The notes: generated from the letters alone by a model not told the origin. DNA of 64,000 bases from Candidatus Yanofskybacteria bacterium RIFCSPHIGHO2_01_FULL_43_32 (GCA_001794125.1 MGJF01000002.1:108514-172513); one strand, 5' to 3'. Counted from the stretch's first letter, positions 7,014-61,455 are shown. A program made the numbers and translations.

Positions 7014-7125
7014 ACGCAACCTCTATGCATGCGGAGGGAGACACCTTTTTAAAAATTTGTTAATTTTGTAAAAAGTGTCTCCCTCCGCCGGTTGTTTAAG
7101 TGGCAAATGGCGGTTGGCCATAGAG
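7014..7125 (+). repeat. Rep-B hairpin repeat, copy A
   Basis: caacctctatgcatgcggagggagacacc[AT-rich loop]ggtgtctccctccgccggttgtttaagt.. Same architecture as 11051, 15206, 22415(-), 37944(-) and 61398(-). Confidence 0.55.
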
Positions 7126-7186
7126 ATTCAAACTCTCTCTGATTAAAACCGGTTCAAAAGGCAGGTTGGACGTACCTTACGCAGGG

Positions 7187-7215
7187 TTGACTTTATAAAC
7201 TTTCTCTGCTATAAT
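7187..7215 (+). promoter_or_regulatory. sigma-70 consensus promoter (TTGACT -17 nt- TATAAT) driving the DUF397 gene
   Basis: TTGACT 7187-7192, 17-nt spacer, TATAAT 7210-7215. RBS aaaggaaaagag before ATG 7255. Confidence 0.55.
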
Positions 7216-7254
7216 TTAGAGCGCAGTCGGCAATGACTGCAGAAAGGAAAAGAG

Positions 7255-7464
7255 ATGCTCAGTCGTATCAGAGTTCGCGATAGGGACTTCAAGATTTCGT
7301 CTTGGTCCAAGAACAATCCGAAGACTTGCGTCGCTGTGGCTATCAAGCCCAACGGCGTGGCTGTCCGCAACAGCAATGACTCGACGAAGAATACCGTGTT
7401 CTTCACCAACGATGAGTGGTCCGCCTTCGTCAAGGGCGTCAAAAACAACGAATTCGGTGTCTAA
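7255..7464 (+). CDS. DUF397 domain protein (69 aa), GC-rich foreign-looking cassette
   Basis: FKISSWSKNNPKTCVAVAIKPNGVAVRNSNDSTKNTVFFTNDEWSAFVKGVKNNEF matches the DUF397 pattern (W.KSS.S..N.CVEVA...VAVRDS.D....L.FT..EW.AFV.GVK.GEF). That family is typical of Streptomyces and other Actinobacteria. The gene is about 52% GC against a ~42% background and has its own promoter and terminator. Confidence 0.65.
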   Translation: MLSRIRVRDRDFKISSWSKNNPKTCVAVAIKPNGVAVRNSNDSTKNTVFFTNDEWSAFVKGVKNNEFGV

Positions 7465-7471
7465 CCCGAAC

Positions 7472-7500
7472 GGGGGGCAGAAATACCCCCCCCTTTTTTT
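7472..7500 (+). terminator. intrinsic terminator (GGGGGG/CCCCCC stem plus T7-8)
   Basis: cggggggcagaaatacccccccc followed by ttttttt. Confidence 0.6.
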
Positions 7501-7513
7501 AACCATTAAATTT

Positions 7514-7912
7514 ATGAAAACAATATTTTACCCAGGATTAGGAGAAACAAAGAAAAACTATAAATCATTATCTAAACATTTAATCGTGGCTGATATTGAT
7601 TGGAATACAGGAAAAGCCACATCTTCAAAAAACTGCGACACAGTTGTGAGTTTTTCGCTTGGAGCTGTTTTTTCTCTGGAGGCAGCTCTTAAAAGAAAAC
7701 TAAAAAAACTTATTCTTTGTTCGCCTACCCCATTTGAATCATTGGGCAAACACAAGGCAGAACAGGTGATTTTTATAATTGGTGAAAGGGAAAAATTTTT
7801 ACAAAAAATATTCAAACCATTATGTAAGAAAAATGTAAAAATGATTATAGTGCCAAAGGGAGATCATCGAATAAACAAAAATTACAAAAAGATACTTCTG
7901 CAAAACATATAA
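7514..7912 (+). CDS. small alpha/beta-hydrolase-like protein (hypothetical)
   Basis: Start at MKTIFYPGLGETKKNY. Has a nucleophile-elbow-like VSFSLGAV and a late GDHRIN His. The gene is AT-rich. This is a low-confidence fold-level call. Confidence 0.3.
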   Translation: MKTIFYPGLGETKKNYKSLSKHLIVADIDWNTGKATSSKNCDTVVSFSLGAVFSLEAALKRKLKKLILCSPTPFESLGKHKAEQVIFIIGEREKFLQKIFKPLCKKNVKMIIVPKGDHRINKNYKKILLQNI

Positions 7913-8078
7913 AATATGGGGGTAACCATACCTTGAACCTCTCCTGCCAATTGCCATTTATCCGCCCAAACAACCGGCGACAGAGAGTTTTGCGGGCTAA
8001 AGCACCGCACACTCCGAGAGAGGTTGTGTAAGCTGTTCTCTTTTAATTTAGCGCTTGCAGTAGTATAATGCATAGGTA

Positions 8079-9329
8079 ATGGATCAATTCTCTTTTGCTT
8101 TAGATTCTCTGCAAACTGTTTTGTGGTTTCTTGCTGGTTATTGGTGGATATTTCTGCCGGTTTTGTTGTTTTTTGGCCTGATGACCGCCTTTGAGACCTA
8201 TACAAAAATGAAATACATCAAATCCATAAAATGGACTCTTGTGAATTTGAAAATTCCGCAAGACCCCGGCAAGAGTCCCAAGGCCACGGAGCAAATATTT
8301 GCCGCGCTCCACGGTACTTTGCCTCCTCCGATAATATGGAGAAACAAATTTTTTAAGGGTACTATGGTTAACTGGATTTCTTTAGAGATAGTCGGTATCG
8401 GAGGAGAAACCCATTTTTACGTAAGAATGCCGGAACAATTTAAGAAATTGGTTCAATCCCAGATTTACGCGCATTATCCCGATGCGGAAATTTCTGAAGT
8501 TGCCGACGACTATGTTAACTTACTGCCTGCGTCTTTGCCAAATGATGCGTACGACCTTTTTGGGTCGGAAATAATTTTAAGCAAGGAGGATTTTTACCCT
8601 ATCAGGACTTATCCCGAATTTGAAGAGAAGTCCAGCGGTCCCGATTATGTAAAAAGAATTGACCCCTTGGCATCCTTGGCGGAAGTTCTTTCGAGTTTAG
8701 AAGCGGGCGAATTCTTGGGCGTACAATTGATTATCAGGCCGACCGGAGACGGTTGGGTTAAAAAAGGCCAGTCCGAGATGGATAAATTGCAAGGCAAGAA
8801 GTCTAAAGCCGGAGAAAGCATGCTGTCTAATCTTGTTTTTGAAATTGATAAAATTATTCCCGGGCATGTGGAGGTTGAAAAATCAGAAAAGAAACCGGAA
8901 CAAACTCAATTAACTTCGGGCAAACAGGAAGCCATAAAAGCGGCTGAAAGAAAAATGTCTAAGCTTGGCTACGAATGCGGAATAAGATTTATGTATTCGG
9001 GGCCCAAAGAGAATTTTCACAGAGCTCACATATCCGGCGTAGTGGGGGTTTTTAAGCAGTATGCTTTGCAGACCATTAACAGCTTTAAGCTCAATGGTCC
9101 TACGATAACCGCCGGCAAATGGCCTTTCAAAAAACAGAAAGAGTATAACAAAAAAATATTTTTCTTAAATAAATATAAAAACCGGTCATTGCCGGCGAAG
9201 GCCTTTATACTGAACATAGAGGAATTAGCAACGATATACCATCTTCCTGATATCGGCGTGAAGTCGCCGTTACTGCCGAGGGTTGAAGCAAAGAAAGGCG
9301 AACCGCCGGTCGGGTTGCCCATAGGTTAG
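8079..9329 (+). CDS. hypothetical membrane-anchored protein, upstream partner of the TraD-like ATPase
   Basis: N-terminal TM (LWFLAGYWWIFLPVLLFFGLM), then a ~370-aa soluble part with no recognised motif. Separated by only 16 nt from the downstream ATPase on the same strand. Confidence 0.4.
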   Translation: MDQFSFALDSLQTVLWFLAGYWWIFLPVLLFFGLMTAFETYTKMKYIKSIKWTLVNLKIPQDPGKSPKATEQIFAALHGTLPPPIIWRNKFFKGTMVNWISLEIVGIGGETHFYVRMPEQFKKLVQSQIYAHYPDAEISEVADDYVNLLPASLPNDAYDLFGSEIILSKEDFYPIRTYPEFEEKSSGPDYVKRIDPLASLAEVLSSLEAGEFLGVQLIIRPTGDGWVKKGQSEMDKLQGKKSKAGESMLSNLVFEIDKIIPGHVEVEKSEKKPEQTQLTSGKQEAIKAAERKMSKLGYECGIRFMYSGPKENFHRAHISGVVGVFKQYALQTINSFKLNGPTITAGKWPFKKQKEYNKKIFFLNKYKNRSLPAKAFILNIEELATIYHLPDIGVKSPLLPRVEAKKGEPPVGLPIG

Positions 9330-9345
9330 GCCGGATAATTAAATT

Positions 9346-11016
9346 ATGGTTTCATCGGAACAAAAAGAAACGGTTTTTTTGGGGGAGACAAGCTTTAGGA
9401 ACAATAAGGTCCGTTTTGGCATTAAACAGGATGACCGCAGAAGGCACATGTATGTCGTCGGTTCAACCGGAATGGGAAAGTCCGAATTTCTCAAGAGTAT
9501 GGCCATTCAGGATATTGAAGCTGGACGGGGCGTATGTTTTATTGATCCTCACGGCGATTCGGCCGATGATCTGCTCGACTATGTTCCGGAAAACCGGATA
9601 AAAGACGTTATTTATTTTGATCCGGATGACCTGCAATATCCCATAGCATTTAACGTTATGGAGGGAATAGGGTTTGACTATAGGCACTTGGTTGCATCGG
9701 GTCTCGTGGGCGTGTTTAAAAAAATTTGGGGAGCTGAAGCGTGGTCCGGAAGGATGGAATATATTTTAAATAATACCATTTTGGCTCTTCTTGAATATCC
9801 GGATTCAACCCTTCTGGGAATCAATAGATTGATGTCCAGTAAAGAATATCGGAAAAAAGTTGTTGCCAATGTAACTGACCCGATCGTTAAAGCTTTTTGG
9901 ACTGACGAATTTGCCAAATACGCCGACAAATTTGCTACAGAAGCTACGGCGGCCATACAAAACAAAGTCGGACAATTCGCCTCAAATAATGTCATCAGAA
10001 ATATTCTCGGCCAGCCCAAATCCAAGATAAATATCAGAAAGATCATGGATGAAGGCAAAATCATGATTGTTAATGTTTCAAAAGGCAAGATTGGAGAAGA
10101 CGCCTCGCGTTTATTGGGAGCTTTTCTTATTACTAAAATACAATTGGCGGCGATGTCGAGAGTTGATACGCCCGAATCAGAAAGAAAGGATTTTTATCTG
10201 TATGTAGACGAGTTTCAAAATTTTGCGACGGAATCTTTCGCTAATATTTTGTCGGAAGCCAGAAAATATCATTTGAGCTTGGTGATGGCCCATCAATATA
10301 TAAAACAAATGGAAGAACCGGTTATGGATGCGGTGTTTGGAAACGTCGGCACTATTGTTTCTTTCAGGGTCGGCGCCGAAGATGCCGAATATTTGGAAAA
10401 ATGGTTCCAGCCAGATTTTATGATGAATGATATTGTAAATCTCGGGAAGCGTAGTATGTATCTGAAGTTGATGATAAGCGGTGTCTCGTCAAAAGGATTT
10501 TCGGCCTCAACGCTGGAAAGATTTCCCAAACTGGAAAACTCAAACCGCCAGGCAATAATTGACGCCTCACGTGAGGCTTATAGCACCCCGAAGAGTATCG
10601 TAGAAAAAGAAATAGCCGAATGGGCCGGGCCGGTTGCTGAAGAATCTTTCACGAGACCAATACCGGAGCGCAAAAGAGATGACAGGCCCTTCAGCTCGGT
10701 TCAGGGCAAGCCAGCTTATGGACCGCCTCCCCTTCGACCAAACTCAGGTCAGGGCAGAGAAGGGAGGCCTTATCCGCCGAGAAGAGAAGAAAATAGGCCG
10801 CCATCTAGACCGCCTCAAAATAATATTCAAACCATCAAGCCCAAAGAGGCGTCTTTGAGCGCCTTAACTGCCCCAGTCGATTTCAGGGGCCGTAAAATAG
10901 ATGATAAATGGAAGGGAAAGAAACCTTCCTTCGCTAAAGCTTCGGAGGGCAAAAAGGAAGTAGACACCGGCGAATTGAAGAAACTGCTGGAGGAGTCGTT
11001 GAAAAAGAAAGAATAA
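9346..11016 (+). CDS. TraD/TrwB/VirD4-like P-loop NTPase (type IV coupling-protein / DUF87-like family) with disordered Pro/Arg-rich C-terminal tail
   Basis: Walker A YVVGSTGMGKSEF, FIDPHGD, Walker B FYLYVDEFQNFA, LSLVMAHQY arginine-finger region. The last ~130 aa are low-complexity (PPPLRPNSGQGREGRPYPPRREENRPPSRPPQ). Confidence 0.5.
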   Translation: MVSSEQKETVFLGETSFRNNKVRFGIKQDDRRRHMYVVGSTGMGKSEFLKSMAIQDIEAGRGVCFIDPHGDSADDLLDYVPENRIKDVIYFDPDDLQYPIAFNVMEGIGFDYRHLVASGLVGVFKKIWGAEAWSGRMEYILNNTILALLEYPDSTLLGINRLMSSKEYRKKVVANVTDPIVKAFWTDEFAKYADKFATEATAAIQNKVGQFASNNVIRNILGQPKSKINIRKIMDEGKIMIVNVSKGKIGEDASRLLGAFLITKIQLAAMSRVDTPESERKDFYLYVDEFQNFATESFANILSEARKYHLSLVMAHQYIKQMEEPVMDAVFGNVGTIVSFRVGAEDAEYLEKWFQPDFMMNDIVNLGKRSMYLKLMISGVSSKGFSASTLERFPKLENSNRQAIIDASREAYSTPKSIVEKEIAEWAGPVAEESFTRPIPERKRDDRPFSSVQGKPAYGPPPLRPNSGQGREGRPYPPRREENRPPSRPPQNNIQTIKPKEASLSALTAPVDFRGRKIDDKWKGKKPSFAKASEGKKEVDTGELKKLLEESLKKKE

Positions 11017-11050
11017 ACAGCTCCAGCCAGCACAATTTATTTCGATAGTT

Positions 11051-11195
11051 CACACAACCTCCATGCATGCGGAGGGAGACGCCTTCATCCCACGAAGAAC
11101 CGCATAAAACCCTGCTGGGTTTTTGCTCTCTCTCGGCTACCCGCCTGCGAACGTTCTTCTTTGGAATGAAGGCGTCTCCCTCCGCCGGTTGCTAT
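11051..11195 (+). repeat. Rep-B hairpin repeat, copy B, with a ~90-bp element nested in its loop
   Basis: cacaacctccatgcatgcggagggagacgcc[...]ggcgtctccctccgccggttg. The usual AT-rich loop is replaced by 11083-11172. Confidence 0.5.
11083..11172 (+). mobile_element. short palindromic element with Rep-A-type terminal inverted repeats (cttcatccca ... tggaatgaagg) inserted in the Rep-B loop
   Basis: The terminal sequences match the Rep-A ends. The interior (cgaagaaccgc...gcgaacgttcttctt) is itself palindromic. Confidence 0.4.
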
Positions 11196-11206
11196 TGTTT
11201 TTATAT

Positions 11207-11362
11207 CACTTTAACGAGGCGAATAAAAAGCGAAAGGCAATTGGCTTAGAGGAACGACCCGCAGGCGCTTGGGCTTGGTTCCTCCAAGCGCCGAGGGAGA
11301 AGAAATTTTTATCGCTGGAATAAAAATATTCTGGTTCCGAGAAGCCAGTTGCCTTGAGCGAG
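11207..11362 (+). repeat. Rep-C leader repeat copy 2 (upstream of the HD-domain gene)
   Basis: See 3361-3601. It lacks the two hairpin insertions of copy 1. Confidence 0.5.
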
Positions 11363-11406
11363 TCTTGCTGTTTGGTAAGTTTGTGTTATTTTAGCGGTAT
11401 TGAGTT

Positions 11407-12675: not shown

Positions 12676-12677
12676 GA

Positions 12678-12931: not shown

Positions 12932-12935
12932 GATG

Positions 12936-14961: not shown

Positions 14962-14971
14962 GGGGTTAGGA

Positions 14972-15172: not shown

Positions 15173-15205
15173 TCGGACAAATGTCCGGTTTTTTAATTTT
15201 AATAA

Positions 15206-15327
15206 CTCACACAACCTCTATGCATGACTGCGGGGTGCCCTTTTCTAAAATCTTACTAATTTTATAAAAGGGCACGCCCTCCGCCAGTTGTTTAAGTAAT
15301 AGCTTACAATTGGCAATAGGGTTTCAA
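15206..15327 (+). repeat. Rep-B hairpin repeat, copy C
   Basis: cacacaacctctatgcatgactgcggggtgccc[ttttctaaaatcttactaattttataaaa]gggcacgccctccgccagttgtttaagt. Confidence 0.55.
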
Positions 15328-15590
15328 AGTAATAAAGCGCAGCCCGGCATCTTATTGAAGCCCGTCCGAACAGGCGGGCTTGGTGTCCACGCCATAGTTC
15401 GTAAGAGAAGCTATTCAAGCTTTAGGCTTTCCGTCAGATGAGTAATGCTATTCAATAAACATCATGATATGGCAGGCTGGACCCGCCGTCGTGAGGACAA
15501 GTGGAGCCAATCGCTGGAGCAATCGGAACGGGCTGAAATAAGGTGTCGGGCGGAGCTTGTCTGACAATGTTTTTATGTTAAGATAAAATC

Positions 15591-22315: not shown

Positions 22316-22414
22316 AGTTTATTTATTTAAGCTTGATTATCTTACTATATTAAAGCATATTTTGCAACAATTCCTTTTAGTTTGAACTTTTATTGCCAAT
22401 TGTCGTCTATTACC

Positions 22415-22500
22415 CAGGCAACCGGCGGAGGGCATGCCCTTTTATAAAATTAGCAAGATTTTAGAAAAGGGCATGCCGCAGCATGCATGGAGGTTGTGTC
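22415..22500 (-). repeat. Rep-B hairpin repeat, copy D (reverse orientation)
   Basis: Reverse complement: cacaacctccatgcatgctgcggcatgccc[ttttctaaaatcttgctaattttataaaa]gggcatgccctccgccggttg. Confidence 0.55.
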
Positions 22501-22516
22501 AACTATAGTTCAGATA

Positions 22517-35407: not shown

Positions 35408-35944
35408 ATGGCACAGCTTACGCAATTTTTAGCATATTTGGATTGGACGATGATTTCGAGATTATTGGTTGCCGCTTTGCTTGGCGGAATTGTCGGGTTT
35501 GAAAGAGAGCGTTCGGGAAAGGTTGCCGGTTTAAGAACCCATACTCTGGTTTCAATAGGAGCGGCGTTATTGTCCATTACCTCCATAAAATTGTTTTTTC
35601 AATTTCCTTCAATCGGAGGACAGGCGGGTTTTGACTACCATTTGATAGCAAATATCATTGTCGGCATAGGTTTTATAGGAGCGGGGACAATATTAAGAAG
35701 GGAAAATCGCATTGAGGGTACAACTACGGCCGCGAGTTTGTGGGTTGTAGCGGCAATCGGTATTGCCAGCGGATTAGGATATTATCAAGAAGCGATAGCA
35801 ACGACGGTAATCGTATATGTTGTTTTGGCCGGGCTTTGGCTGGTGGAAAAATACCTGACCCGGGATATTCGTTATAAAGGGCGGGGAATTTTCGGTCAAC
35901 TCAAACAAAGTGAAAATCCCGGACCTGAATATACTGAAAAGTAA
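35408..35944 (+). CDS. mgtC: MgtC/SapB-family membrane protein
   Basis: ISRLLVAALLGGIVGFERE...AGLRTHTLVSIGAAL signature. Confidence 0.7.
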   Translation: MAQLTQFLAYLDWTMISRLLVAALLGGIVGFERERSGKVAGLRTHTLVSIGAALLSITSIKLFFQFPSIGGQAGFDYHLIANIIVGIGFIGAGTILRRENRIEGTTTAASLWVVAAIGIASGLGYYQEAIATTVIVYVVLAGLWLVEKYLTRDIRYKGRGIFGQLKQSENPGPEYTEK

Positions 35945-37067
35945 ACAATTTATTTATGCCACTGCTGTTCTGATAGGAACCATGGTTGGGGTGGGGGTCT
36001 TTGGAATTCCCTTTGCTTTTTCTAAGGCCGGCTTTTGGATGGGTTTTTTATTCCTGATATTTATCGGTTTTATAACGCTTCTTTTGAACCTTATGTATGG
36101 CGAAGTGGTTTTGAGGACCCACGAAGAGCATCAGATAACCGGTTATACCGAAAAATATCTCGGGCCGTGGTTTAAAAGAGCCATTTTCTTTTCCGTGGCC
36201 CTCGGACTGTATTCCGCTCTGCTTGCATACATAGTTATTGCCGGAGATTTTCTGAACAATATCTTCTCTTCTGTTCTTTATGCCTCCCCGGCCTCATATA
36301 GTTTAGTGTTTTTTTTCGTTCTTTCGGTTCTGGTCTTATTGGGAATCAGAAGAATTTCCTGGGTTGAACTGCTTTTGGTGGGCTTGTTTACCGTGGTGGT
36401 GCTCATGATATTCGGTGTTGGTATAAATAAAATAGATTTGTCTAATCTTGCCGGAATTCAACGGGAATTCTGGTTCTTGCCCTATGGAGTTTTACTTTTC
36501 GCTTTTGCGGGATTTTCATCAATTCCCATTCAGAGAAGCATATTGAACGGACAAGAAGGCGGCTTGAAAAAATCCATCTCGTTGGCGATTGTTTTAACCG
36601 GCGCGCTTTATTTGCTGTTTGCTTTTACGGTTCTGGGCATATCGGGAAGCGTGACTACACCGGATGCCGTATCGGGTTTATATGAATTTTTGGGCGGCAA
36701 AATAATATTTCTTGGTTCGTTTTTCGGCATTTTGGCCGTCAGCACTTCTTTTTTAATGCTGGGCTCGGCTTTTTTGGACATGTTCCGTCTCGATTATAAT
36801 GTTCCGAGGAAATTGGCCTGGCTCTTGGTTGTTGCCCCTCCTTTGGTTTTATTCTTGGGCGGTTTGCGGACCTTTATTGATATCATAAGCTTGGCCGGTT
36901 CAGTTGCCATCGGGCTTGAAGGGATAGTTTTGACATTCGTTTACATAAAATCAAAATCAAAAGGGGACAGGGTCCCGGAATATAGTTTGGAACTTCCGAA
37001 ATTTATTTATTATCTCCTCATCTTCATGTTCGGAACGGGGATTGTGTATGCACTATTCATCAAATAA
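35910..37067 (+). CDS. amino-acid permease-like transporter (Trp/Tyr permease / Aa_trans superfamily)
   Basis: 11 TM, N-terminal GTMVGVGVFGIPFAFSKAG motif. Overlaps the mgtC 3' end if ATG 35910 is used. Confidence 0.5.
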   Translation: MKIPDLNILKSKQFIYATAVLIGTMVGVGVFGIPFAFSKAGFWMGFLFLIFIGFITLLLNLMYGEVVLRTHEEHQITGYTEKYLGPWFKRAIFFSVALGLYSALLAYIVIAGDFLNNIFSSVLYASPASYSLVFFFVLSVLVLLGIRRISWVELLLVGLFTVVVLMIFGVGINKIDLSNLAGIQREFWFLPYGVLLFAFAGFSSIPIQRSILNGQEGGLKKSISLAIVLTGALYLLFAFTVLGISGSVTTPDAVSGLYEFLGGKIIFLGSFFGILAVSTSFLMLGSAFLDMFRLDYNVPRKLAWLLVVAPPLVLFLGGLRTFIDIISLAGSVAIGLEGIVLTFVYIKSKSKGDRVPEYSLELPKFIYYLLIFMFGTGIVYALFIK

Positions 37068-37100
37068 AAAAGCCCCGCCTGACGAAGCGCGGGGCTTTCT
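37065..37100. terminator. bidirectional terminator between convergent genes
   Basis: aaaaaaagccccgcctgacgaagcgcggggctttct, A-run before and T-rich after. Confidence 0.5.
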
Positions 37101-37873: not shown

Positions 37874-37943
37874 CTTTTACTAAGTATCCTGCATTATCCG
37901 GAAGAGTTTGAACTTCTCTTGCTAATTGTCATTTACAACCAAA

Positions 37944-38025
37944 GCAACCGGCGGAGGGTGTGCCCTTTTATAAAATTAGCAAGATTTTAGAAAAGGGCAC
38001 CCCGCAGTCACGCATGGAGGTTGTG
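37944..38025 (-). repeat. Rep-B hairpin repeat, copy E (reverse orientation)
   Basis: Reverse complement: cacaacctccatgcgtgactgcggggtgccc[ttttctaaaatcttgctaattttataaaa]gggcacaccctccgccggttg. Confidence 0.55.
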
Positions 38026-38056
38026 AGGTGCTATGGATATGGCATAATTATAAAAC

Positions 38057-39409: not shown

Positions 39410-39497
39410 ATATAGTCAACAATAGTTTAAGTATAAACACAGTTAAGAATGTCTAAGCCGACCGCTGCTGGGATACATATCCTCCAAAGGTGAGGTG

Positions 39498-39526
39498 TTG
39501 ACATTGTTTAGAGATGGTAATATAAT
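39498..39526 (+). promoter_or_regulatory. perfect consensus promoter TTGACA-17-TATAAT
   Basis: TTGACA 39498-39503, TATAAT 39521-39526. Followed by SD AAGGAGG 39565-39571 and ATG 39577. Confidence 0.55.
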
Positions 39527-39576
39527 GTTTAAACAACAATAGTCTGGCAAACGCAGTTCTTCACAAGGAGGTTCGC

Positions 39577-39837
39577 ATGCTCGTTCCGTGTCCTTTCAGG
39601 GGCGACCACAAAATTCGAGAGGGCCACATGCACGGCCCGAGCCAGTGTCCGCCGCCGGCTGGTGAACACGGTGACCACCGCCGCAACAAGCGTCTTCGCG
39701 CTCGGTTTCGTGCCAGGCAGTCAGAAGGTATCATTGAGAACCGTGGCGTGGCTGTTGCCGGCGTCGGCGGGAATCAGGCCAAGTCCCATCGGCAGGGAAA
39801 GAAGGCGGCCAAGACCAAGACCGGGACCAGTGTCTAA
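39577..39837 (+). CDS. 86-aa basic, His/Pro/Arg-rich hypothetical protein (GC-rich cassette)
   Basis: MLVPCPFRGDHKIREGHMHGPSQCPPPAGEHGDHRRNKRLRARFRARQSEG... About 62% GC. Textbook promoter, SD and terminators. No known domain. Confidence 0.4.
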   Translation: MLVPCPFRGDHKIREGHMHGPSQCPPPAGEHGDHRRNKRLRARFRARQSEGIIENRGVAVAGVGGNQAKSHRQGKKAAKTKTGTSV

Positions 39838-39852
39838 CGACTGTCTTCGGTC

Positions 39853-39912
39853 GGGGGCGACAACGTGTCGCCCCCTAATTTTTTAAATGGAGCATTTGCT
39901 CCTTTTTTGTTT
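39853..39912 (+). terminator. two tandem intrinsic terminators
   Basis: gggggcgacaacgtgtcgccccc followed by taatttttt, then ggagcatttgctcc followed by ttttttgtttt. Confidence 0.55.
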
Positions 39913-40188
39913 TCTTAAAATCGCTCAACCCTAACCCATTCTCGGGCACGGCATAAATTCTTGCTGGAATTTTGCCTCGTATTACAGAGATTCCCGGACT
40001 AAAGCACCGTGAACCTTCTCCGAGCCACTCCGTCGAGTTCCGTAAGTCCCTCTAATAGATTAGGGTTTCGCTTTTGCTTAATTAAGAGCGACCAGCCATA
40101 TACCCACAGGGAGAACTTGCGCAGGCCCGAAGCTTGGTGCTTGGTGAGGGCCGAGCATGTAGATAGCGCCGAGCCGCTGGAGCGAGGC

Positions 40189-40221
40189 GACTATCGGTCG
40201 AGTCGGGGGTATGTGGCTGGG
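40189..40221 (+). promoter_or_regulatory. conserved ~33-nt core of a ~60-nt motif (gctgagg.gactatcggtcgagtcgggggtatgtggctggg.gcga) ~40 nt upstream of the UDG start; second copy at 52103-52134 upstream of rseP
   Basis: Near-identical 32-nt core in both places. Looser similarity extends ~15 nt on each side. Confidence 0.3.
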
Positions 40222-40260
40222 AGCGAATCTGTTCACAACCCAAACAGCTTATAGTAAACT

Positions 40261-41804: not shown

Positions 41805-41968
41805 CTTATTTTAAAAACCGCTCGGGATATATGCCTTCAGAGAAGGACTCGGAGGCATTCAGGCTTGGTTCTGCGAAATGCCGAGAGACAAGAAAGATTT
41901 GCCGCCGGAACAAATCTATTCTGGTTCGATGAAGGTATATGTCCTGGCGGTTCTATGGGATGAAGTAG
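41805..41968 (-). repeat. Rep-A palindromic MITE-like repeat, copy 2 (reverse orientation)
   Basis: Reverse complement aligns with copies 1 and 3 along the full length. Confidence 0.55.
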
Positions 41969-51454: not shown

Positions 51455-51638
51455 TCCGCCTTCATCCCAAATCACCGCTCAGGACACATGCCTTCCTCGA
51501 ACCGGAATAGATTTGCTCCGGCGGCAAATCTTTCTTGTCTCTCGGCATTATTTAAGAACCAAGCAAATAATGCCTCCGAGTCCTTCTCTGAAGGCACATG
51601 TCCTTCGCCTGATAAACTGGAATGAAGGTGCCGCTTTT
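51455..51638 (+). repeat. Rep-A palindromic MITE-like repeat, copy 3
   Basis: Aligns with 1931-2103 and rc(41805-41968). Ends are ccgccttcatccca / tggaatgaaggtgccgc. Confidence 0.55.
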
Positions 51639-52081: not shown

Positions 52082-52102
52082 AAACATCGCCGGAAGCTGA
52101 GG

Positions 52103-52134
52103 ACTATCGGTCGAGTCGGGGGTATGTGGCTGGG
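52103..52134 (+). promoter_or_regulatory. second copy of the UDG/rseP upstream motif, embedded in a long stem (aaaacatcgcc...ggcgatgtttt)
   Basis: actatcggtcgagtcgggggtatgtggctggg identical to 40190-40221. Sits 44 nt upstream of the rseP ATG. Confidence 0.3.
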
Positions 52135-55841: not shown

Positions 55842-56891
55842 ATGTTAAACAAACTCTTTGGACATTGGTCAAAGGATATCGGCATAGACTTGGGTACGGC
55901 AAATACTCTGGTTTATGTTCGCGGGAAAGGGATTGTCATCAACGAACCGTCAATTGTGGCCGTGAACCAAAAAACCGGCAAAATATTGGCTATCGGCAAA
56001 GAAGCCAGAACGATGGTTGGCCGGACCCCCGGATATATCACGGTTTCCCGCCCTTTGATTAACGGCGTTGTTTCCGATTTTGAAGTGACCGAGCAGATGC
56101 TTAAATATTTTATTGATAAGGTCCATCAGGAGAGTTTTACTTTGTTGCCCCGGCCGAGAGTGGTGGTCGGAATTCCTTCAGGAGTTACGGAAGTGGAAAA
56201 AAGGGCCGTTGAAGACGCGACCTACAATGCCGGCGCGAGAGAGGTTTATCTTATTGAAGAGCCGATGGCCGCGGCTATCGGAGCGCGTCTGCCCGTTCAT
56301 GAGGCGGTGGCAAATGTAATAGTGGATATGGGCGGCGGCACGACCGAAGTGGCGGTTATTTCCATGGGCGGTGTCATTGCTTCCCGTTCTCTGCGGGTAG
56401 CCGGAGACAAGCTCAACGAAGACATCGTCAGATATTTGAGAGAAGAAAGAAATCTTTTGGTGGGAGAAGCCACGGCAGAAAATTTGAAATTAACCCTGGG
56501 TTCGGCTTATCCTTCCGAAGAGGAGGGAGAAGGCCGCGTGAGAGGCAGGGATTTAGTTTCCGGCTTGCCCAAGGAAATATCCATAACTTCAGAAGAGATC
56601 AGGGAAGCGATGCAGCGTTCCGTAAAAAGCATTGTTCTTGCCGTTAAAAATACAATTGAAGAAACCCCTCCCGAACTGACAGCCGATCTGATAAACAGGC
56701 ACATATTCTTGGCCGGCGGCGGAGCGTTGTTAAACGGTCTGGATAAAATGATAGCCCACGAAACCAAATTATTCGTCAAAATAGTGGATGATCCTTTGAC
56801 CGCCGTGGCAAGGGGATGCGGTTTTGTGCTTGAAAATGTGGACCAGCTAAAAAACGTTCTGGTTGCCACCCAAAAAGACGATTACTTTTAA
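55842..56891 (+). CDS. mreB: rod shape-determining protein MreB
   Basis: Actin-fold motifs DIGIDLGTANTLVYV, VVDMGGGTTEVAVIS, GIFLAGGGALL. Confidence 0.9.
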   Translation: MLNKLFGHWSKDIGIDLGTANTLVYVRGKGIVINEPSIVAVNQKTGKILAIGKEARTMVGRTPGYITVSRPLINGVVSDFEVTEQMLKYFIDKVHQESFTLLPRPRVVVGIPSGVTEVEKRAVEDATYNAGAREVYLIEEPMAAAIGARLPVHEAVANVIVDMGGGTTEVAVISMGGVIASRSLRVAGDKLNEDIVRYLREERNLLVGEATAENLKLTLGSAYPSEEEGEGRVRGRDLVSGLPKEISITSEEIREAMQRSVKSIVLAVKNTIEETPPELTADLINRHIFLAGGGALLNGLDKMIAHETKLFVKIVDDPLTAVARGCGFVLENVDQLKNVLVATQKDDYF

Positions 56892-56899
56892 AAAAAATT

Positions 56900-57694
56900 A
56901 TGGCCAGACCGTCTTTTAAAACATTTCTCCTCCTCACCACTATTATTACCGGCGCTGTTTTTTTTAATAAGTACGCCATAAAAGACGGCCTGATTTTTTT
57001 TCCGGAATCTTTTATGAAATTGGGAAATTACTTGTTTATAAAAGCAGAAAGTTTTGGCGGTTTTATGGAAAAAATAAAAAATTTCAACCGTCTCGCAAGC
57101 GAAAATGATAAATTAAAACAGAATCAGGAGGCGATTTTGGGCTTGAAAGCAAGAGTTGACGACCTGGAAGATGAAAATGGTTTTTTAAGACGCTCCGGCC
57201 GTATTGCCCAGAAATTCGACCACCCCGTTGTTTATGCCGGTATTTTCAATCTTAATCTTGCTCCTGCCGGATATAATGTCCTGTTGAACAAGGGAGCCCA
57301 AGATGGCGTATCTGTCGATGATGTTGTGGTCACCGCCGAAGGAATATTGGTCGGAAAAATCCAGAAGGTTATGCGGAACTTTTCGAGGGTTCTTTTTGTT
57401 TCCGATCCTGAATTAAAAATTACCGCCAAAACGCTTAATTCCGGTACGACAGGCATCGTACGGGGCGCTTTGGGTGAGGGTATGTATTTTGATTTTGTCA
57501 TCCAAGAAGACGAAATAAAAGAGGGAGATGTGCTGATATCGACCGGCAATGACATGTTCCCCCCGGCCCTGGTTATCGGTTCCGTAGAAAATATTGAGGT
57601 CAACGCAACCCAAATATTCAAGAAGATCCGCATCCGCCCCGCCATTAAAGACACCCAATTAGGCAGGGTATTGGTAATAAAATTAAACAAATGA
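56900..57694 (+). CDS. mreC: rod shape-determining protein MreC
   Basis: N-terminal TM, coiled-coil, beta-rich C-terminal domain, position after mreB. Confidence 0.7.
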   Translation: MARPSFKTFLLLTTIITGAVFFNKYAIKDGLIFFPESFMKLGNYLFIKAESFGGFMEKIKNFNRLASENDKLKQNQEAILGLKARVDDLEDENGFLRRSGRIAQKFDHPVVYAGIFNLNLAPAGYNVLLNKGAQDGVSVDDVVVTAEGILVGKIQKVMRNFSRVLFVSDPELKITAKTLNSGTTGIVRGALGEGMYFDFVIQEDEIKEGDVLISTGNDMFPPALVIGSVENIEVNATQIFKKIRIRPAIKDTQLGRVLVIKLNK

Positions 57695-58053
57695 AAACTT
57701 GGTTGATCGCAGCTTTCTTTTTAGCGGGCATATTTCTTGACGGTATAATTTTTCCGGGATTTTTCGGTTTCAGAGAAAGTTTTTTGACGATAATTTTTCT
57801 TGTGGTTATGCTTCTGTACCATAAAGCCGATTTTCAGGGCTTGATTATCGGAGCAATATTCGCCGGGTTAGTCGAATTTTATTGGGGATTAAAAATGGGA
57901 ACTTTGATGCTGCCCTTATTGGCGTCAGCGGGAATATTTTTTTTGTTAAACATATTCTTTAATATCAAAAGCGGGGTTTTGACGGCGCTTTCCGGCGCGG
58001 TCATGTTCGTTATCTTTTGGGAGGCATCGACTCTAATAACTAAAATATTGTAA
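57691..58053 (+). CDS. mreD: rod shape-determining protein MreD-like small membrane protein
   Basis: 4-TM 120-aa protein overlapping the mreC stop. Call is positional. Confidence 0.45.
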   Translation: MKTWLIAAFFLAGIFLDGIIFPGFFGFRESFLTIIFLVVMLLYHKADFQGLIIGAIFAGLVEFYWGLKMGTLMLPLLASAGIFFLLNIFFNIKSGVLTALSGAVMFVIFWEASTLITKIL

Positions 58054-58057
58054 TTTA

Positions 58058-59938
58058 ATGTCAAAAAAAGAGTATAAAATTTCAATTAGCGGGGACTGGG
58101 TTGCTCCGGAGGAAACGCTTTTAGATTCGGGCAGTGAATACTCGGATCTTGAAACGCCAATTTCAGCTAATGCTTTCAAACTGATTTTTATAGCAGCCGT
58201 TATTCTATTTGTTGCAGTCATGGCGCTTACTTTTAAAATAGGGATTGCCGGCCATGATTCTTTTGCAAATCTTGCCCTACAGAATAAGTCTGTGAATTTT
58301 CTTATTCCCCCCCCTAGGGGTATTATCACGGATCGATTTGGAAAGCCATTGGTAAAAAATTTGCCAAGCTTTGATCTGCTGATTGTTTCAAGAGGAATCA
58401 GAGAAAATCAATCGGAAGATAATCAGAACAGGATTGCCGAAATTTTAAAAATTCAACCGGAAGAATTTAAAACTTTTATTTCAGACGGGATTAAAACAAG
58501 TTCCATTTTTTTTGCCGCAACCGACCTGAATAAAGATCAAGTTCTGGCAATCAAGTACCTCAATCCCGACGGCTACTATATTGTCCCGAACACCAAGCGT
58601 TATTACTTAGACGGCCATCAATTTTCTCAAGTTGCGGGTTATGTCGGGAAAGTCAACAAAAACGACTTGAAGGACGAATATTATTATTCCACCGATATAA
58701 TCGGCCGTTTGGGGGCAGAAGCCCAATACGAAGAAATTTTAAGAGGGGAACATGGAAGGATTTTATTCGGCAAAGAAAAAGACGAGAATTTGAATAAGGA
58801 CCCGGTTCAAGGGAATAACTTAGTTTTGAATATTGATTACGATTTGCAAAAGAAACTGTATAATGAACTTTACGGAGTTTTAACTTCGGCGGGTCTGTCC
58901 CGCGGGGCGGCGGTAATTCAGAATCCCCGGAACGGCGCCGTGTTGGCGATGGTGAGTTTCCCTTCTTTTGATAACAATATCTTTATAAAAGGCCTGTCGG
59001 ATAGCCAGTTTAAGAATCTCTTTGAAAGTAATGCCAAACCGCTTTTTAACAGGGTAATAAGCGGATTATATAATCCCGGTTCGACCATCAAGCCCTTCAT
59101 GGGCATGGCGGCGCTTCAGGAAGGAATAATTACTTCTCAAGACACCATTCGCGACTGTGTTAGTTTGGTCGTTCCCAATCCTTTTGATAAAAACTCCCCC
59201 TATGTGTTTAAGAATTGGAGACAGGATTACGGCCTTTTCAATTTGAGGCGGGCCATTGCCCAATCATGCAACGTTTTCTTTTTTGCCATAGGGGGCGGAT
59301 TCGGAAATATTTCCGGTCTTGGCGCGGAAAAAATAGCGAAATATCTTTCGACCGGACTGGCTAATGTAAAATTAGGAATAGATATGCCGGGAGAAGAGTA
59401 TGGTTTTGTTCCCGACCCTGATTGGAAACTCCAAACAAGAGGTGAAAATTGGTATCAGGGGGATACTTATAATATTTCCGTAGGCCAAGGCGACTTATTG
59501 GTCACTCCTTTGTGGTTGAATACCTATGTTTCGGCCATTGCCAATGGGGGCACTCTTTATAAACCCATGGTCGCCCAGAAGACGGTTGATGAAAGGAACA
59601 ACGATTTGGAAGTATTTATGCAAAAAGCGCTCGCAAAACTGCCTTTCAAGGACGATGTCATTCGGGAGATGAAAAGCGATATGGAAGAAACGGTAATTTC
59701 CGGAACGGCCGGGACGCTGAAAGATTTACCCGTTAGAGTGGGCGCGAAGACCGGTACGGCCGAAGTGGTAAAAGGCAAAAGCATCAACTCCCTGTTCACC
59801 GCTTTTGCTCCTTTTGAAAATCCGGAACTTAATATTACGGTTTTGATAGAAGGTTCGGCTTCAAATCAAGGACTGGCTATTCGGGTAGCCCACAATGTAT
59901 TAAAATGGTATTTTGGAGAATATCAACAGAACCCTTGA
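58058..59938 (+). CDS. mrdA: penicillin-binding protein 2 (class B transpeptidase)
   Basis: N-terminal TM, dimerisation domain, SxxK (GSTIKPF), SxN (SCNVFF), KTG (KTGTAE). Confidence 0.85.
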   Translation: MSKKEYKISISGDWVAPEETLLDSGSEYSDLETPISANAFKLIFIAAVILFVAVMALTFKIGIAGHDSFANLALQNKSVNFLIPPPRGIITDRFGKPLVKNLPSFDLLIVSRGIRENQSEDNQNRIAEILKIQPEEFKTFISDGIKTSSIFFAATDLNKDQVLAIKYLNPDGYYIVPNTKRYYLDGHQFSQVAGYVGKVNKNDLKDEYYYSTDIIGRLGAEAQYEEILRGEHGRILFGKEKDENLNKDPVQGNNLVLNIDYDLQKKLYNELYGVLTSAGLSRGAAVIQNPRNGAVLAMVSFPSFDNNIFIKGLSDSQFKNLFESNAKPLFNRVISGLYNPGSTIKPFMGMAALQEGIITSQDTIRDCVSLVVPNPFDKNSPYVFKNWRQDYGLFNLRRAIAQSCNVFFFAIGGGFGNISGLGAEKIAKYLSTGLANVKLGIDMPGEEYGFVPDPDWKLQTRGENWYQGDTYNISVGQGDLLVTPLWLNTYVSAIANGGTLYKPMVAQKTVDERNNDLEVFMQKALAKLPFKDDVIREMKSDMEETVISGTAGTLKDLPVRVGAKTGTAEVVKGKSINSLFTAFAPFENPELNITVLIEGSASNQGLAIRVAHNVLKWYFGEYQQNP

Positions 59939-60007
59939 ATTTTATATTAAAAAGCGTAATATATCTTAATCAACGTTTAGCCCTCTTTCGCTAAAGCTAC
60001 GGAAGGG

Positions 60008-60067
60008 CACTTCTTCGCTCAATGAAGAAATGCCCGCACTTCGAAGCTCCGAAGGAGCGAAGAAGTG
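60008..60067 (+). promoter_or_regulatory. 13-bp-stem leader hairpin whose 3' arm covers the greA start codon, just downstream of the SD
   Basis: cacttcttcgctc (60008-60020) pairs with gagcgaagaagtg (60055-60067). SD aaggag 60050-60055. GTG start 60065 lies inside the 3' arm. Confidence 0.3.
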
Positions 60068-60523
60068 GACAATCAATATTTTTCAAAAGAAGGATTGGAA
60101 AAATTAAAAAGAGAGCTCGAAGAGAGGCTTAATGTTATGCGTCCGGAAATAGCCCAGCGTATCAAGGAAGCGAAGGAACTGGGTGATTTGTCCGAAAACG
60201 CGGAATATGATTCAGCCAAAGAAGCCCAGGCCTTGAACGAGGGCAGAATAGAGGATATAAAAAGCACTCTGGAAAGCGCGGTAATTATAACCGGAAACAA
60301 TCTTAGCGGAACCGTCGGTGTCGGTTCGGGCATAAAGGTAGAATCTAAAGACGGAACCCGTTCGTTTGTCATTGTCGGGGCAGCCGAATCCGATCCGATA
60401 AAAGGGTTTATTTCAAATGAGTCTCCTTTGGGAAAAGCATTTTTGGGACACAAGAAGGGAGATAAACTTGAAGTAAGGACGCCTAAGGGAATTGTGGAAT
60501 ATAAAATTGTTGAGGTAAACTAA
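60065..60523 (+). CDS. greA: transcription elongation factor GreA
   Basis: N-terminal coiled-coil with GDLSENAEYDSAKEAQ. C-terminal FKBP-like domain (ISNESPLGKAFLGHKKGDKLEV). GTG start. Confidence 0.8.
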   Translation: MDNQYFSKEGLEKLKRELEERLNVMRPEIAQRIKEAKELGDLSENAEYDSAKEAQALNEGRIEDIKSTLESAVIITGNNLSGTVGVGSGIKVESKDGTRSFVIVGAAESDPIKGFISNESPLGKAFLGHKKGDKLEVRTPKGIVEYKIVEVN

Positions 60524-60592
60524 ACGAACGCCCCTTTATTTAACAAACCTATCCAGGACGATGAATCAGTCGGAATAGGGCGTTCGTTTTTG
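60524..60592 (+). terminator. large-loop terminator after greA
   Basis: aacgaacgccc ... gggcgttcgtt followed by tttg. Confidence 0.35.
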
Positions 60593-60595
60593 ATT

Positions 60596-60626
60596 ATGAA
60601 AAAAGGGCCCCGTTGCGGGGCCCTTT
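60596..60626. terminator. bidirectional GC-clamped terminator (agggccccgttgcggggccct)
   Basis: A-run on one side and ttt on the other. Ends the minus-strand GC-rich gene. Confidence 0.55.
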
Positions 60627-60669
60627 GGCTTCTCCTTTCGAATCTCTGTCTGGCTGGCGCGGTCCCGGC

Positions 60670-61134
60670 TTAGTAGGTCAGGCCGGGACCGAAAAACTCG
60701 ACTTCCAGCGGGAGTTCGTCTCGGACGATATTGAGCTTCTCCTTGGCATTGTCGACGTCGGCGCTCGCCGCGTAGACGTTGTTCTGGGCGATCTTGATGG
60801 CCTCGTCGAGCTCCGCCCTCATTTCCTTGAGCATGGCGGCATCGATGATGGTCTCCGGCGTATCGGTCTCCACCTCCCCCAACTTCTTGCGGAGATCTTT
60901 CAGCGCCGCTTCGGCGCTGGCCAGCTTGCTCTTGGCGACGGTAAGTTCGTCCTCGTACCGCTCGTTGAGCGGGATGGCACGCTCGTCGGGGTTGAACCCG
61001 ATCCACCTGTCGCCGACGAGGCCGATGTGGCGGGTGACCGAGCGCTGATTGAGCCCTTTCCCCGTAGGGATGGTGACTTGCGCACGCTTGCCGTTGGCCA
61101 ACTTGCTGACCGAGCTGACCGCGTAACTCTTCAT
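60670..61134 (-). CDS. hypothetical protein with AbrB/SpoVT-like N-terminal segment and long coiled-coil (GC-rich cassette)
   Basis: ATG 61134 with AAGGAGAC SD. N-terminus KLANGKRAQVTIPTGKGL resembles a swapped-hairpin DNA-binding motif. Residues 60-140 are heptad-rich. About 60% GC. The supplied ORF starts 27 nt further upstream, without an SD. Confidence 0.45.
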   Translation of the reverse strand: MKSYAVSSVSKLANGKRAQVTIPTGKGLNQRSVTRHIGLVGDRWIGFNPDERAIPLNERYEDELTVAKSKLASAEAALKDLRKKLGEVETDTPETIIDAAMLKEMRAELDEAIKIAQNNVYAASADVDNAKEKLNIVRDELPLEVEFFGPGLTY

Positions 61135-61150
61135 GGCTGTCTCCTTCGTC

Positions 61151-61185
61151 CCCAGCACCACTTTTAAAACAAAGGTGGTGCTGGG
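61151..61185 (-). promoter_or_regulatory. perfect 11-bp stem hairpin in the 5' UTR of the 60670-61134 gene
   Basis: cccagcaccac ttttaaaacaaag gtggtgctggg, between the promoter and the SD. Confidence 0.35.
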
Positions 61186-61225
61186 TTTACGGGTTTCCGA
61201 ACGAATTGTCAGTGAACGTATCTAC

Positions 61226-61255
61226 ATTATAGCACACTTTTAACCATTGTGTCAA
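61226..61255 (-). promoter_or_regulatory. consensus promoter TTGACA-18-TATAAT (minus strand)
   Basis: Plus-strand tgtcaa 61250-61255, attata 61226-61231. Confidence 0.5.
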
Positions 61256-61312
61256 ATTAAGTAAAAACCGGCCTCCGCCATCCGCCAACTGGCGGAGGCG
61301 GATGAGCCGGTT

Positions 61313-61340
61313 TCAACGGCTCACACATGTGAGCCGTTGA
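61313..61340. repeat. second copy of the tcaacggctcacacatgtgagccgttga hairpin
   Basis: Identical to 2109-2138. Preceded by another hairpin (aaaccggcctccgcc...ggcggaggcggatgagccggttt). Confidence 0.45.
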
Positions 61341-61397
61341 TTTGTCGTATCAAAGAGAGTTTGATCCCTTATTGCCAAGTATCAGCTAACCACCTAA

Positions 61398-61455
61398 ACA
61401 ACCAACGGAGGGAGATTGCCTGCCTGCCGGCAGGCAGGTGTCAGCGATGTGGAGT
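61398..61455 (-). repeat. degenerate Rep-B-like copy with replaced loop (cctgcctgccggcaggcagg palindrome)
   Basis: caaccaacggagggaga...ggtgtc...agcgatgtggag resembles the Rep-B flanks in reverse orientation. Confidence 0.3.

Follow-up and report, generated by a model that had tools for sequence, protein, structure and literature searches.

We describe here Rep-B, a family of hairpin-bearing repeats found in a 64,000-nucleotide stretch of DNA (hereafter the window) from Candidatus Yanofskybacteria bacterium RIFCSPHIGHO2_01_FULL_43_32 (GCA_001794125.1, MGJF01000002.1:108514-172513) and in related genomes. From the sequence comparisons there is, in our view, about an even chance that Rep-B consists of lineage-specific, non-autonomous interspersed hairpin repeats, like REPINs, IS200/IS605-derived palindromic elements (PATEs) or ERIC. 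Elements of this kind are proposed because the hairpin covaries while keeping irregularities, the family is restricted to one clade and present in high copy number, units are gained or lost as blocks without terminal inverted repeats (TIRs) or target site duplications (TSDs), and insertions occur in the loop. An earlier note on this stretch had left the choice between a structured RNA and a REP/BIME-like DNA hairpin. The evidence leans to the DNA hairpin, which is favoured by presence or absence at orthologous sites, by a mosaic architecture with nesting, by flanks conserved in sequence and not in pairing, and by the RAYT-like genes that related genomes carry; the same evidence leaves room for a secondary or even primary role at the RNA level, half of the copies being in a 3' untranslated region (UTR) position.

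The six copies listed in the earlier note all lie at the positions and on the strands given there, and the stem pairs that it quoted are correct. As it had proposed, a covariance model was built (R1, from 30 copies) and scanned on the window and related loci; the family was recovered and one further copy, c7, raised the total in the window to seven (c1 to c7, Table 1), about 1.6% of its length. All seven are intergenic, as had been said of the six. The flanks described as conserved motifs are both far above chance: the 3' motif CCCTCCGCCRGTTG has five exact matches in the window and eight with at most 2 mismatches versus 0.61 expected (eight were reached in 0/100 shuffles), and the 5' motif CACAACCTCYATGCATG has five matches with at most 3 mismatches versus 0.12 expected. 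Conservation also runs further than had been claimed, for ~55 nt beyond GGTTG (...ATTGGCAATAGArGTTCAAAC) and for ~10-35 nt before CACAAC. The supposed AT-rich loop, in contrast, is almost wholly paired, and the true loop is of 7 nt (yTRCTRA).

The unit is ~150 nt long, or 175-190 nt in a long form. It opens with an asymmetric 5' block conserved in sequence, (stop codon)-[CGCTCCGCC...CTGAAYAG]-YTSACACAACCTCYATGCRTG, with the consensus (CTGAA)YAG-YTSACAC-AACCTCYAT-GCRTG(A)CT. A hairpin of ~30 bp, P2, is formed by GCGGGG..., a variable stem of 6-9 bp, an AU-rich stem in which the folds keep one mismatch or bulge, and the 7-nt loop; its sequence is free provided that the arms pair and the mid-stem irregularity stays. 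The conserved 3' block, CCCTCCGCCGGTTG...ATTGGCAATAGArGTTCAAAC, has the consensus CCCTCC-GCCGGTTG, ~20 nt, CRATTGGC-A-ATAGArGTT-CAAAC. Many copies have a 5' extension right after the stop codon, (G)TCGCTCCGCC-N-CTGAAYAG or one ending ...CACTTTATTTCAAYAG, and many have a 3' extension ending CTGAAAT. Terminal inverted repeats are not present: there is just a 9-nt subterminal inverted pair, AACCTCYAT/ATAGAGGTT, and the true ends (GGTCGCTCCGCC... / ...CTGAAAC) are unrelated to each other. P2 is followed by CCCTCCGCCGGTTG and not by a U-tract, the intrinsic terminators being separate and before or after the unit. Two further candidates were rejected. A sigma-54 or sigma-70 promoter inside TTGGCAATAGAGGTTCAAAC lacks the -12 GC and has no usable -10 by inspection, and the promoter scan found that of the downstream gene only. 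As for a small ORF (open reading frame), neither the sense MHDCGVPFSKILLIL nor the antisense ...QPAEGVCLFKISKIFKRCTPQSCIEVV* is conserved, because inter-anchor lengths of 76-80 nt shift the frame.

The P2 hairpin is maintained by compensatory change. In alignment A4, which holds 116 distinct metagenome copies and, like the other alignments, was fitted to the covariance model, 11 of the 20 P2 pairs changed on both sides, and the structure-preserving stem variation described in the earlier note is thus upheld on a larger scale. Over the whole structure there were 241 cells with both-sided change versus 91.9±6.9 in shuffles (0/500), and the covariation score was 0.196 versus 0.115 for shuffles and 0.053-0.066 for slid controls. 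Results agreed in the 30-copy set, and mutual information with average product correction placed every top Watson-Crick-compatible pair inside P2, including the loop-closing pair. Among 150 distinct copies there are 64 distinct stem variants, with 85% of cells Watson-Crick, and P2 folds well as single-stranded DNA (ssDNA; z -5.3 to -9.5). In the exact patterns that gave the primary matches, one or both strands were prescribed for three other candidate pairings, namely P1 (AACCTCYAT/ATAGAGGTT), 74% paired and with a single change on both sides, P3 (GCCGGTTG/CRATTGGC), 92% paired solely via wobble alternation, and the closing stem CAACC/GGTTG, nearly invariant; covariation in the 150 copies supports none of them, and we rejected them as real helices. 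The flanks are conserved in sequence without covariation, which fits recognition by a protein.

The minimum free energy folds of several copies do show a three-way junction of P1 (AACCUCYAU/AUAGAGGUU), P2 and P3 (GCCGGUUG/CRAUUGGC), and on this basis Rep-B might be an independently transcribed small RNA (sRNA), either trans-acting or protein-scaffolding. Compensation in P1 of two copies (c7 and L029:405), the conserved unpaired junction nucleotides and peripheral 'expansion' hairpins that resemble those of structured RNAs, and the presence of a terminator both before and after some copies (c1, c3 and c6) would agree with it. However, we regard this as highly unlikely: P1 and P3 have the pairing record just given, the unit has no conserved promoter inside it or ahead of it and many copies sit so close to a stop codon that none would fit, Rfam has no match, and about one copy per 9 kb (for an assumed genome size of ~1 Mb, typical of the phylum) would be unprecedented for an sRNA gene.

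Rep-B copies pile up directly 3' of stop codons. Gene context was assessed by simple greedy ORF calling around 134 non-redundant full copies. Between co-directional genes 54 copies were sense and 35 antisense, while 28 lay between convergent and 17 between divergent genes. The upstream ORF was co-oriented in 82/134 copies (binomial p=0.012), and 66 of those 82 ORFs ended at most 30 nt from the element; in 22 copies the stop codon lay inside the start of the element match, often as the TAG of 'ATAG'. Where the upstream neighbour was on the other strand, 41 of 52 copies were more than 30 nt away from it. Since the location right after stop codons is so frequent, many copies are expected to be transcribed, and so are those of L024, L016 and L015, which are preceded by a stop codon and followed by an intrinsic terminator. 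In the window, c1 and c3 come after terminators.

At orthologous sites, units are gained or lost as blocks without TIR or target duplication. The window is syntenic with several related loci (designated here by L numbers) at ~77-82% nucleotide identity, and a flank-based search yielded two filled/empty pairs. In one, the window is empty (Table 1) where the L024 ortholog holds a unit, (A)GGTCGCTCCGCC...CATCTGAAAC, bounded exactly by the stop codon (TAG in L024, TAA in the window) on one side and by the terminator A-tract on the other; the upstream gene encodes a permease (35910-37067), the flanks are 82-89% identical, and in this single case no TIR and at most a 1-nt duplication were seen. In the other, the unit of L109 is gone from L099 except for its last ~12 nt, AAAAGTTCAAAC. 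REPIN excisions have been reported to leave the last ~6 bp (PMC3116915). The L099 remnant parallels these footprints and could equally be the result of a plain deletion.

Three genomes differ in what lies at the locus bounded by the orthologs of genes 5898-6968 and 8079-9329: the window has c1(+), a DUF397 gene, a 132-aa ORF and c7(-), L029 has a convergent Rep-B pair around 266 bp without genes, and L023 has a single copy and 274 bp. Moreover, L018 and L029 carry Rep-B where the window has none or has a member of a second repeat family, Rep-A. Convergent Rep-B pairs were also considered as composite transposons, which is not supported, as they enclose unrelated small genes or none and their contents vary at orthologous loci.

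Orthologous Rep-B copies at the locus just described are of different hairpin classes, for instance c1 and its counterpart at L029:405-556, indicating that conversion or replacement is frequent. Mutation by template switching is known to correct quasi-palindromes, and intrastrand template switching, or gene conversion between arms or copies, might change both arms without any selection on the fold. Stem classes common to different genomes and the graded series GTGCACC, GTGTACC, GTGTGCC opposite GGCACAC could be seen in the same light. Such a process would, however, perfect the palindrome, whereas a bulge and a mid-stem mismatch are kept across classes and the 64 stem variants still pair to the extent given above; nor does it explain the asymmetric conserved flanks and the high copy number. 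As a full account of Rep-B we find it quite unlikely, but the compensation itself may in part be due to mechanical palindrome correction.

The family is also mosaic, with hairpin-deleted, hairpin-replaced and hairpin-enlarged forms recurring in several genomes. In c7 the backbone is kept and P2 is swapped for another module, GGAGTGTGCGG...CCCGCAAAACTCT, which in L072 is present alongside P2. Copy c2 consists of the 5' block, the stem base, a branched apical domain of ~75 nt and CCCTCCGCCGGTTG, with the 3' third absent and a Rep-A copy next to it (ssDNA fold -42.3 kcal/mol, z=-9.5). The extra sequence that had been taken for a nested insertion in c2 is real, but is a recurrent alternative apical domain, found also in L012, L049, L067 and L078. 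Likewise, c6, which had been called degenerate, is a hairpin-deleted form to which a 20-nt perfect palindrome was added after GACAC (61419-61438), and both variants exist in other genomes, the hairpin-less one at L020:5196-5288 and the same insertion in L025.

A GC-rich mini-element of 42 nt (54 nt counting the flanking G and C) occupies one apical-loop position of Rep-B, with TTTA/TCTA/ATTG preceding and CTAA following it, in at least 10 loci (L028, L038, L051, L054, L072, L089, L095, L099, L115, L122 and L131). It forms a double or triple hairpin with the sequence TCCCGAC...GTCGGGA-CCCCGAC...GTCGGGG, also read as TCCCGAC...GTCGGGACCCCGAC...GTCGGGG, or TCCCGAT...ATCGAGGATCCTCGAT...ATCGGGA, and a member of this mini-family is inserted in a Rep-A copy (window 3502-3554). 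The mini-element behaves as an independent, site-selective insertion, and Rep-B tolerates and attracts nested mini-palindromes in its single-stranded apical loop.

Conservation of the flanks as sequence and not as pairs, together with the short palindromes ATGCAT, CCGG and CAATTG and the intergenic location, could suggest a double-stranded DNA site for a host protein (nucleoid-associated, a regulator, or a restriction-modification or uptake signal), with the conserved blocks as binding sites. A palindrome bound by a dimer would keep its sequence, though, while the arms of Rep-B vary among 64 variants and stay complementary; whole units come and go as blocks and contain nested insertions, and the neighbour genes have no common function. 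This is the least probable of the explanations weighed here.

If Rep-B is mobile, an enzyme acting in trans would be needed, and the earlier note had suggested a search for an HUH transposase. The tblastn query was an E. coli RAYT sequence, which gave weak but consistent matches in three loci. These RAYT-like ORFs carry the motifs YHVYNRG, NHFH(L/V)L (HUH) and YIHLNP, score 24.1, 31.2 and 28.7 bits with Pfam Y1_Tnp (PF01797, cut-off 23) for the L054, L073 and L126 ORFs as a set, and are ~40% identical to one another. Thus, RAYT-like Y1 genes do occur on related contigs, although none lies in the window and none is flanked by Rep-B. HUH Y1 enzymes and REP-like partners therefore exist in this community, and a link to Rep-B may be supposed. 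A tblastn search for an IS608-type TnpA gave no credible match in the related loci. An autonomous parent was sought as co-oriented 5' and 3' halves at most 3 kb apart in ~1 Mb of related DNA, and only inserts of 40-124 nt, enclosing no ORF, were found. The Pfam scan showed no transposase, integrase or reverse transcriptase among 54/58 candidate window proteins. Hence nothing indicates that the copies are fragments of a known insertion sequence end, as the earlier note had allowed: there is no Rfam match, no transposase in the window, and no ORF-enclosing pair of split halves in the ~1 Mb.

As interspersed hairpin repeats, Rep-B copies would spread through an ssDNA intermediate with P2 folded, and their conserved flanks would be read by a trans-acting enzyme, most plausibly a RAYT-type Y1 HUH transposase. 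Surviving copies would sit where they are least harmful, between a stop codon and a terminator or promoter, where they would be co-transcribed and may secondarily affect the stability of mRNA 3' ends or translation termination.

Several observations weigh against this proposal. Just two filled/empty comparisons are available, between genomes ~80-90% identical, and an indel arising by recombination is inseparable from transposition; near-identical copies at new sites and excision junctions were not found in the loci compared. The three complete RAYT-like genes are each flanked by their own different palindrome (e.g. ATCAAGGCGTCGCCTTGAT) and not by Rep-B, and the 64-kb window has no RAYT-like Y1 gene. 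Unlike REPs, most classes have no GTAG, the majority being CTGCGGGG or ACGGAGGG and only the minor GCGTAGC/GCGTAGA having it. The element blocks are far more conserved than the neighbour genes (~78% nucleotide identity), which could equally mean a host function. A pure DNA model also leaves unexplained that among the non-Watson-Crick cells of P2, read on the drawn strand, 171 are A·C and 57 G·U, while P3 shows the opposite in alignment A3 (113 G·U versus 9 A·C), few independent events being behind these counts. The strand evidence is conflicting, and no model considered accounts for both mismatch asymmetries.

Some of these points would fit better a structured RNA module that acts in cis within 3' UTRs and intergenic spacers, its hairpin selected as RNA and its copy number reflecting use by the host. 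It could block 3' exonucleases, offer a site to RNase III or RNase E, or act as a brake on ribosomes or termination, and it would be compatible with a mobile origin. About half of the copies start at most 30 nt from a co-oriented stop codon, some of them supplying its TAG, and the copies between stop codon and terminator in the three loci named above are transcribed. P2 covaries and the blocks outlast their neighbours in conservation; moreover, the G·U/A-U/G-C alternation by which P3 is 92% paired is workable only in RNA of this strand. Liang, Rudd & Deutscher (2015) reportedly found that in E. coli both mRNA stability and translation are affected by REPs located near stop codons. On the other hand, 35/89 copies between co-directional genes are antisense and 17 are between divergent genes. 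The P2 mismatches on the sense strand are mainly A·C, and it is the reverse-complement RNA that folds better in 26/35 copies (mean -41.1 versus -37.6 kcal/mol, Wilcoxon p=0.003). The flanks persist even in copies whose hairpin is missing, exchanged or hugely enlarged, P1 and P3 have no both-sided covariation support, and without a U-tract the hairpin is not itself a terminator. We consider a selected RNA module possible but doubtful.

At least ~200 Rep-B copies were recovered by exact-pattern scans and the covariance model. In species-representative genomes the exact two-anchor pattern matched 30 stretches, every one from Patescibacteria metagenome-assembled genomes (MAGs), namely Yanofskybacteria MGJB01 and MGLG01, JBBUJJ01, CAZPLD01, CAZZGH01 and DATDXQ01, and the 5'-block pattern found at least 115 stretches in groundwater metagenomes (Rifle, Hainich and others). 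In the 684 kb of loci from the latter pattern the covariance model had 160 matches, and nhmmer gave 291 full or partial matches in 1.0 Mb. The hosts among the matches listed are solely Patescibacteria MAGs (Ca. Yanofskybacteria and relatives) or groundwater metagenomes. Viral contigs had 0 matches to either conserved block, by which a phage origin was ruled out. Rfam at gathering thresholds reported tRNA-Lys alone in the window, and permissive scans of c3 and c2 gave sub-threshold miRNA-type hairpin matches only, so that a known RNA family was discarded; so was a tRNA-like element, as ARAGORN on the window reports only tRNA-Lys. Full-text literature searches returned no account of such repeats in the candidate phyla radiation (CPR). 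According to these data the best reading is that Rep-B is an undescribed repeat family of a small clade of groundwater Patescibacteria, of a kind (REPIN/ERIC-type hairpin repeats) already known.

The genomes of Patescibacteria (CPR) measure ~1 Mb and are regarded as poor in repetitive or mobile DNA. Among the Rep-B copies lie members of at least two more small repeat families, and the families insert into each other; this suggests that hairpin-based DNA turnover is ongoing in these episymbionts. A bolder proposal, which we think unlikely, is that Rep-B, the nested mini-palindromes and Rep-A mark active ssDNA transposition, with a divergent RAYT-like Y1 and TIR-less, TSD-less insertion precisely at stop codons, or else that Rep-B is a domesticated three-way-junction 3' UTR RNA module read by an RNA-binding or RNA-guided protein. 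If true, either stop-codon-targeted ssDNA transposition or such a domesticated module would be a first for this reduced-genome phylum. With 64 stem variants of one hairpin, the family is a natural covariation set on which mechanical palindrome correction could be told apart from selection on a DNA or RNA fold. In practical terms, the copies could serve as strain-typing and assembly-break markers for groundwater CPR, and are candidate substrates for the RAYT-like enzymes on related contigs.

Table 1. Coordinates of Rep-B copies and of other features in the window and in related loci (L numbers)
Feature	Coordinates	Strand	Basis
Rep-B c1, full unit	7000..7150	+	CM (covariance model) R1 130.4 bits, E=3e-29
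Rep-B c2, enlarged apical domain	11038..11191	+	CM 38.5 bits
Rep-B c3, full unit	15195..15346	+	CM 154.1 bits
Rep-B c4, full unit	22363..22513	-	CM 143.9 bits
Rep-B c5, full unit, divergent intergenic region	37889..38041	-	CM 147.8 bits
Rep-B c6, hairpin-deleted backbone (AATCTCC|CTCCGTTGGTTG...TTGGCAATAAGGGATCAAAC)	61342..61475	-	CM 41.5 bits, E=5e-8
Rep-B c7, backbone kept, P2 swapped for other hairpin module	7914..8043	-	CM 46.7 bits, E=2.8e-9
Empty site (L024 ortholog filled with long-form Rep-B)	37066..37072	+	pairwise alignment A5
RAYT-like Y1_Tnp gene	L054:5866-6528	-	tblastn + Pfam
RAYT-like Y1_Tnp gene	L073:2705-3412	-	tblastn + Pfam
RAYT-like Y1_Tnp gene	L126:9593-10342	-	tblastn + Pfam
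RAYT-like Y1_Tnp ORF, partial	L089:4463-4657	-	
Rep-A copy	1971-2097	reverse complement	
Rep-A copy	3350-3601	+	
Rep-A copy	11195-11361	+	
Rep-A copy	41821-41951	+	
Rep-A copy	51497-51625	reverse complement	

The genes next to Rep-B in the window are ordinary housekeeping genes with no common function; uvrB, ftsW and rpsT take their annotation from the identical contig MGKK01000012.1, beside the Pfam scan. Copy c1 has a perfect hairpin of the 'GCGGAGGGAGACACC' class at ~7031-7088 (ssDNA fold -24.2 kcal/mol, z=-9.2) and comes after the terminator of a sigma-70/HARE-HTH gene (5898-6968). Copy c7, convergent with c1 and antisense to both neighbour genes, has its orthologous position at L023:4150-4303. 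The segment between them (7150-7914) encodes a small DUF397 protein (7255-7464, PF04149, E=4e-12), whose gene has a near-consensus promoter of its own, and the 132-aa ORF there has no Pfam match; convergent Rep-B pairs in L013, L017, L020 and L028 also enclose short unrelated ORFs, those of L017 and L028 GC-rich by eye. Directly upstream of c2 (9346-11016) is a homolog of VirD4/TraG-like coupling proteins (DUF87, TrwB_AAD_bind, TraG-D_C). Copy c3 sits after the ddl terminator and upstream of a class II aminoacyl-tRNA synthetase gene. Copy c4 starts 4-9 nt past the uvrB stop codon, depending on the covariance model or nhmmer boundaries, and is upstream of the rpsT promoter; the arrangement is identical in MGKK01000012.1 and Ga0209542_10000123, and an exact-protein look-up with rpsT for strain polymorphism gave identical arrangements only. 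Copy c5 has the same aligned sequence as L111:415-567.

Rep-A copies are ~130-250 nt long with a GC-rich core, ...GACCCGCAGGCGCTTGGGCTTGGTTC...CCAAGCGCCGAGGGAG..., and have no Rfam match at E≤1. They occur upstream of secD, of an HD-domain gene and of a subtilase gene, and are 92% identical to L023:9-280, from another species. The copy at 3350-3601 contains a perfect palindrome, TCCCACACTCATGCATGAGTGTGGGA (3373-3398), which is absent from the copy at ~11210 and is bounded on both sides by a direct CGAG that looks like a 4-bp target duplication. A 29-nt palindrome, TTCAACGGCTCACACATGTGAGCCGTTGA, is found at 2109-2137 and 61312-61340 of the window, at L005:1751-1774 and L029:303-326, and in L017, often just 3' of a Rep-B copy. 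Finally, an 850-bp gene-poor stretch (39410-40260), with no Rfam match at E≤0.1, holds fragments of the repeat modules nested in L078 and L013 and a small ORF (39577-39837, GC-rich by eye), with a TTGACA/TATAAT-like promoter before it (by eye) and a terminator after it; 33 nt of it (40189-40221) are repeated exactly at 52102-52134.

Among known systems, integron attC sites share with Rep-B an imperfect hairpin conserved by structure and not by sequence, kept extrahelical irregularities and short conserved ends (CACAAC ... GGTTG). However, Rep-B is not in co-oriented arrays by an integrase and is dispersed on both strands among housekeeping genes, its ends misfit RYYYAAC/GTTRRRY (GTTGYTT versus GTTRRRY), and it has ~55 nt of extra conserved 3' sequence. 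As the core sites are unmatched and no integrase was found among the scanned window proteins, attC was rejected. So were a classical miniature inverted-repeat transposable element, given the lack of TIRs and at most a 1-nt ambiguity at the target in the single filled/empty pair, and TIGR-Tas arrays, which are tandem whereas Rep-B is dispersed.

PATEs resemble Rep-B in their asymmetric ends and internal hairpin(s), in having no TIR and no TSD, as in the one clean filled/empty pair, and in that insertion of the mini-element into single-stranded loops fits ssDNA targeting. They differ from it because no full-length parent with tnpA or tnpB was found in ~1 Mb, because there is no defined target of 4-5 nt, the left end of Rep-B following stop codons (TAA/TAG) and not one fixed word, and because the copies in the window (3 plus, 4 minus) show no preferred orientation with respect to the GC-skew strand.

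Enterobacterial ERIC (IRU) and the modular pneumococcal BOX elements are, like Rep-B, imperfect palindromes, of ~127-150 nt, located in transcribed intergenic regions in both orientations, with very high sequence conservation across species, internal-deletion variants and insertions at fixed internal sites. ERIC has no sequence relationship to Rep-B, forms one palindrome over the whole unit where Rep-B has one hairpin and non-palindromic blocks, and duplicates TA on insertion, of which Rep-B shows no sign.

Compared with REPINs, Rep-B is a longer unit (150-190 nt), its conserved flanks are asymmetric and not inverted copies of each other, P2 itself being symmetric with compensating arms, and no RAYT gene among the related loci is flanked by it. 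The likeness to the REP/REPIN-RAYT system lies in the extragenic location and high copy number (7 in 64 kb; 160 covariance model matches in 684 kb), in the lack of TIR and TSD, in the mosaic clusters with other small palindromes as in BIMEs, in the 'empty' site that keeps the last ~12 nt, and in the RAYT-like genes of genomes related to that of the window. Moreover, Rep-B has a long hairpin with conserved ends and a freer, compensating middle, and compensatory changes are common in REPIN hairpins (PMC3116915).

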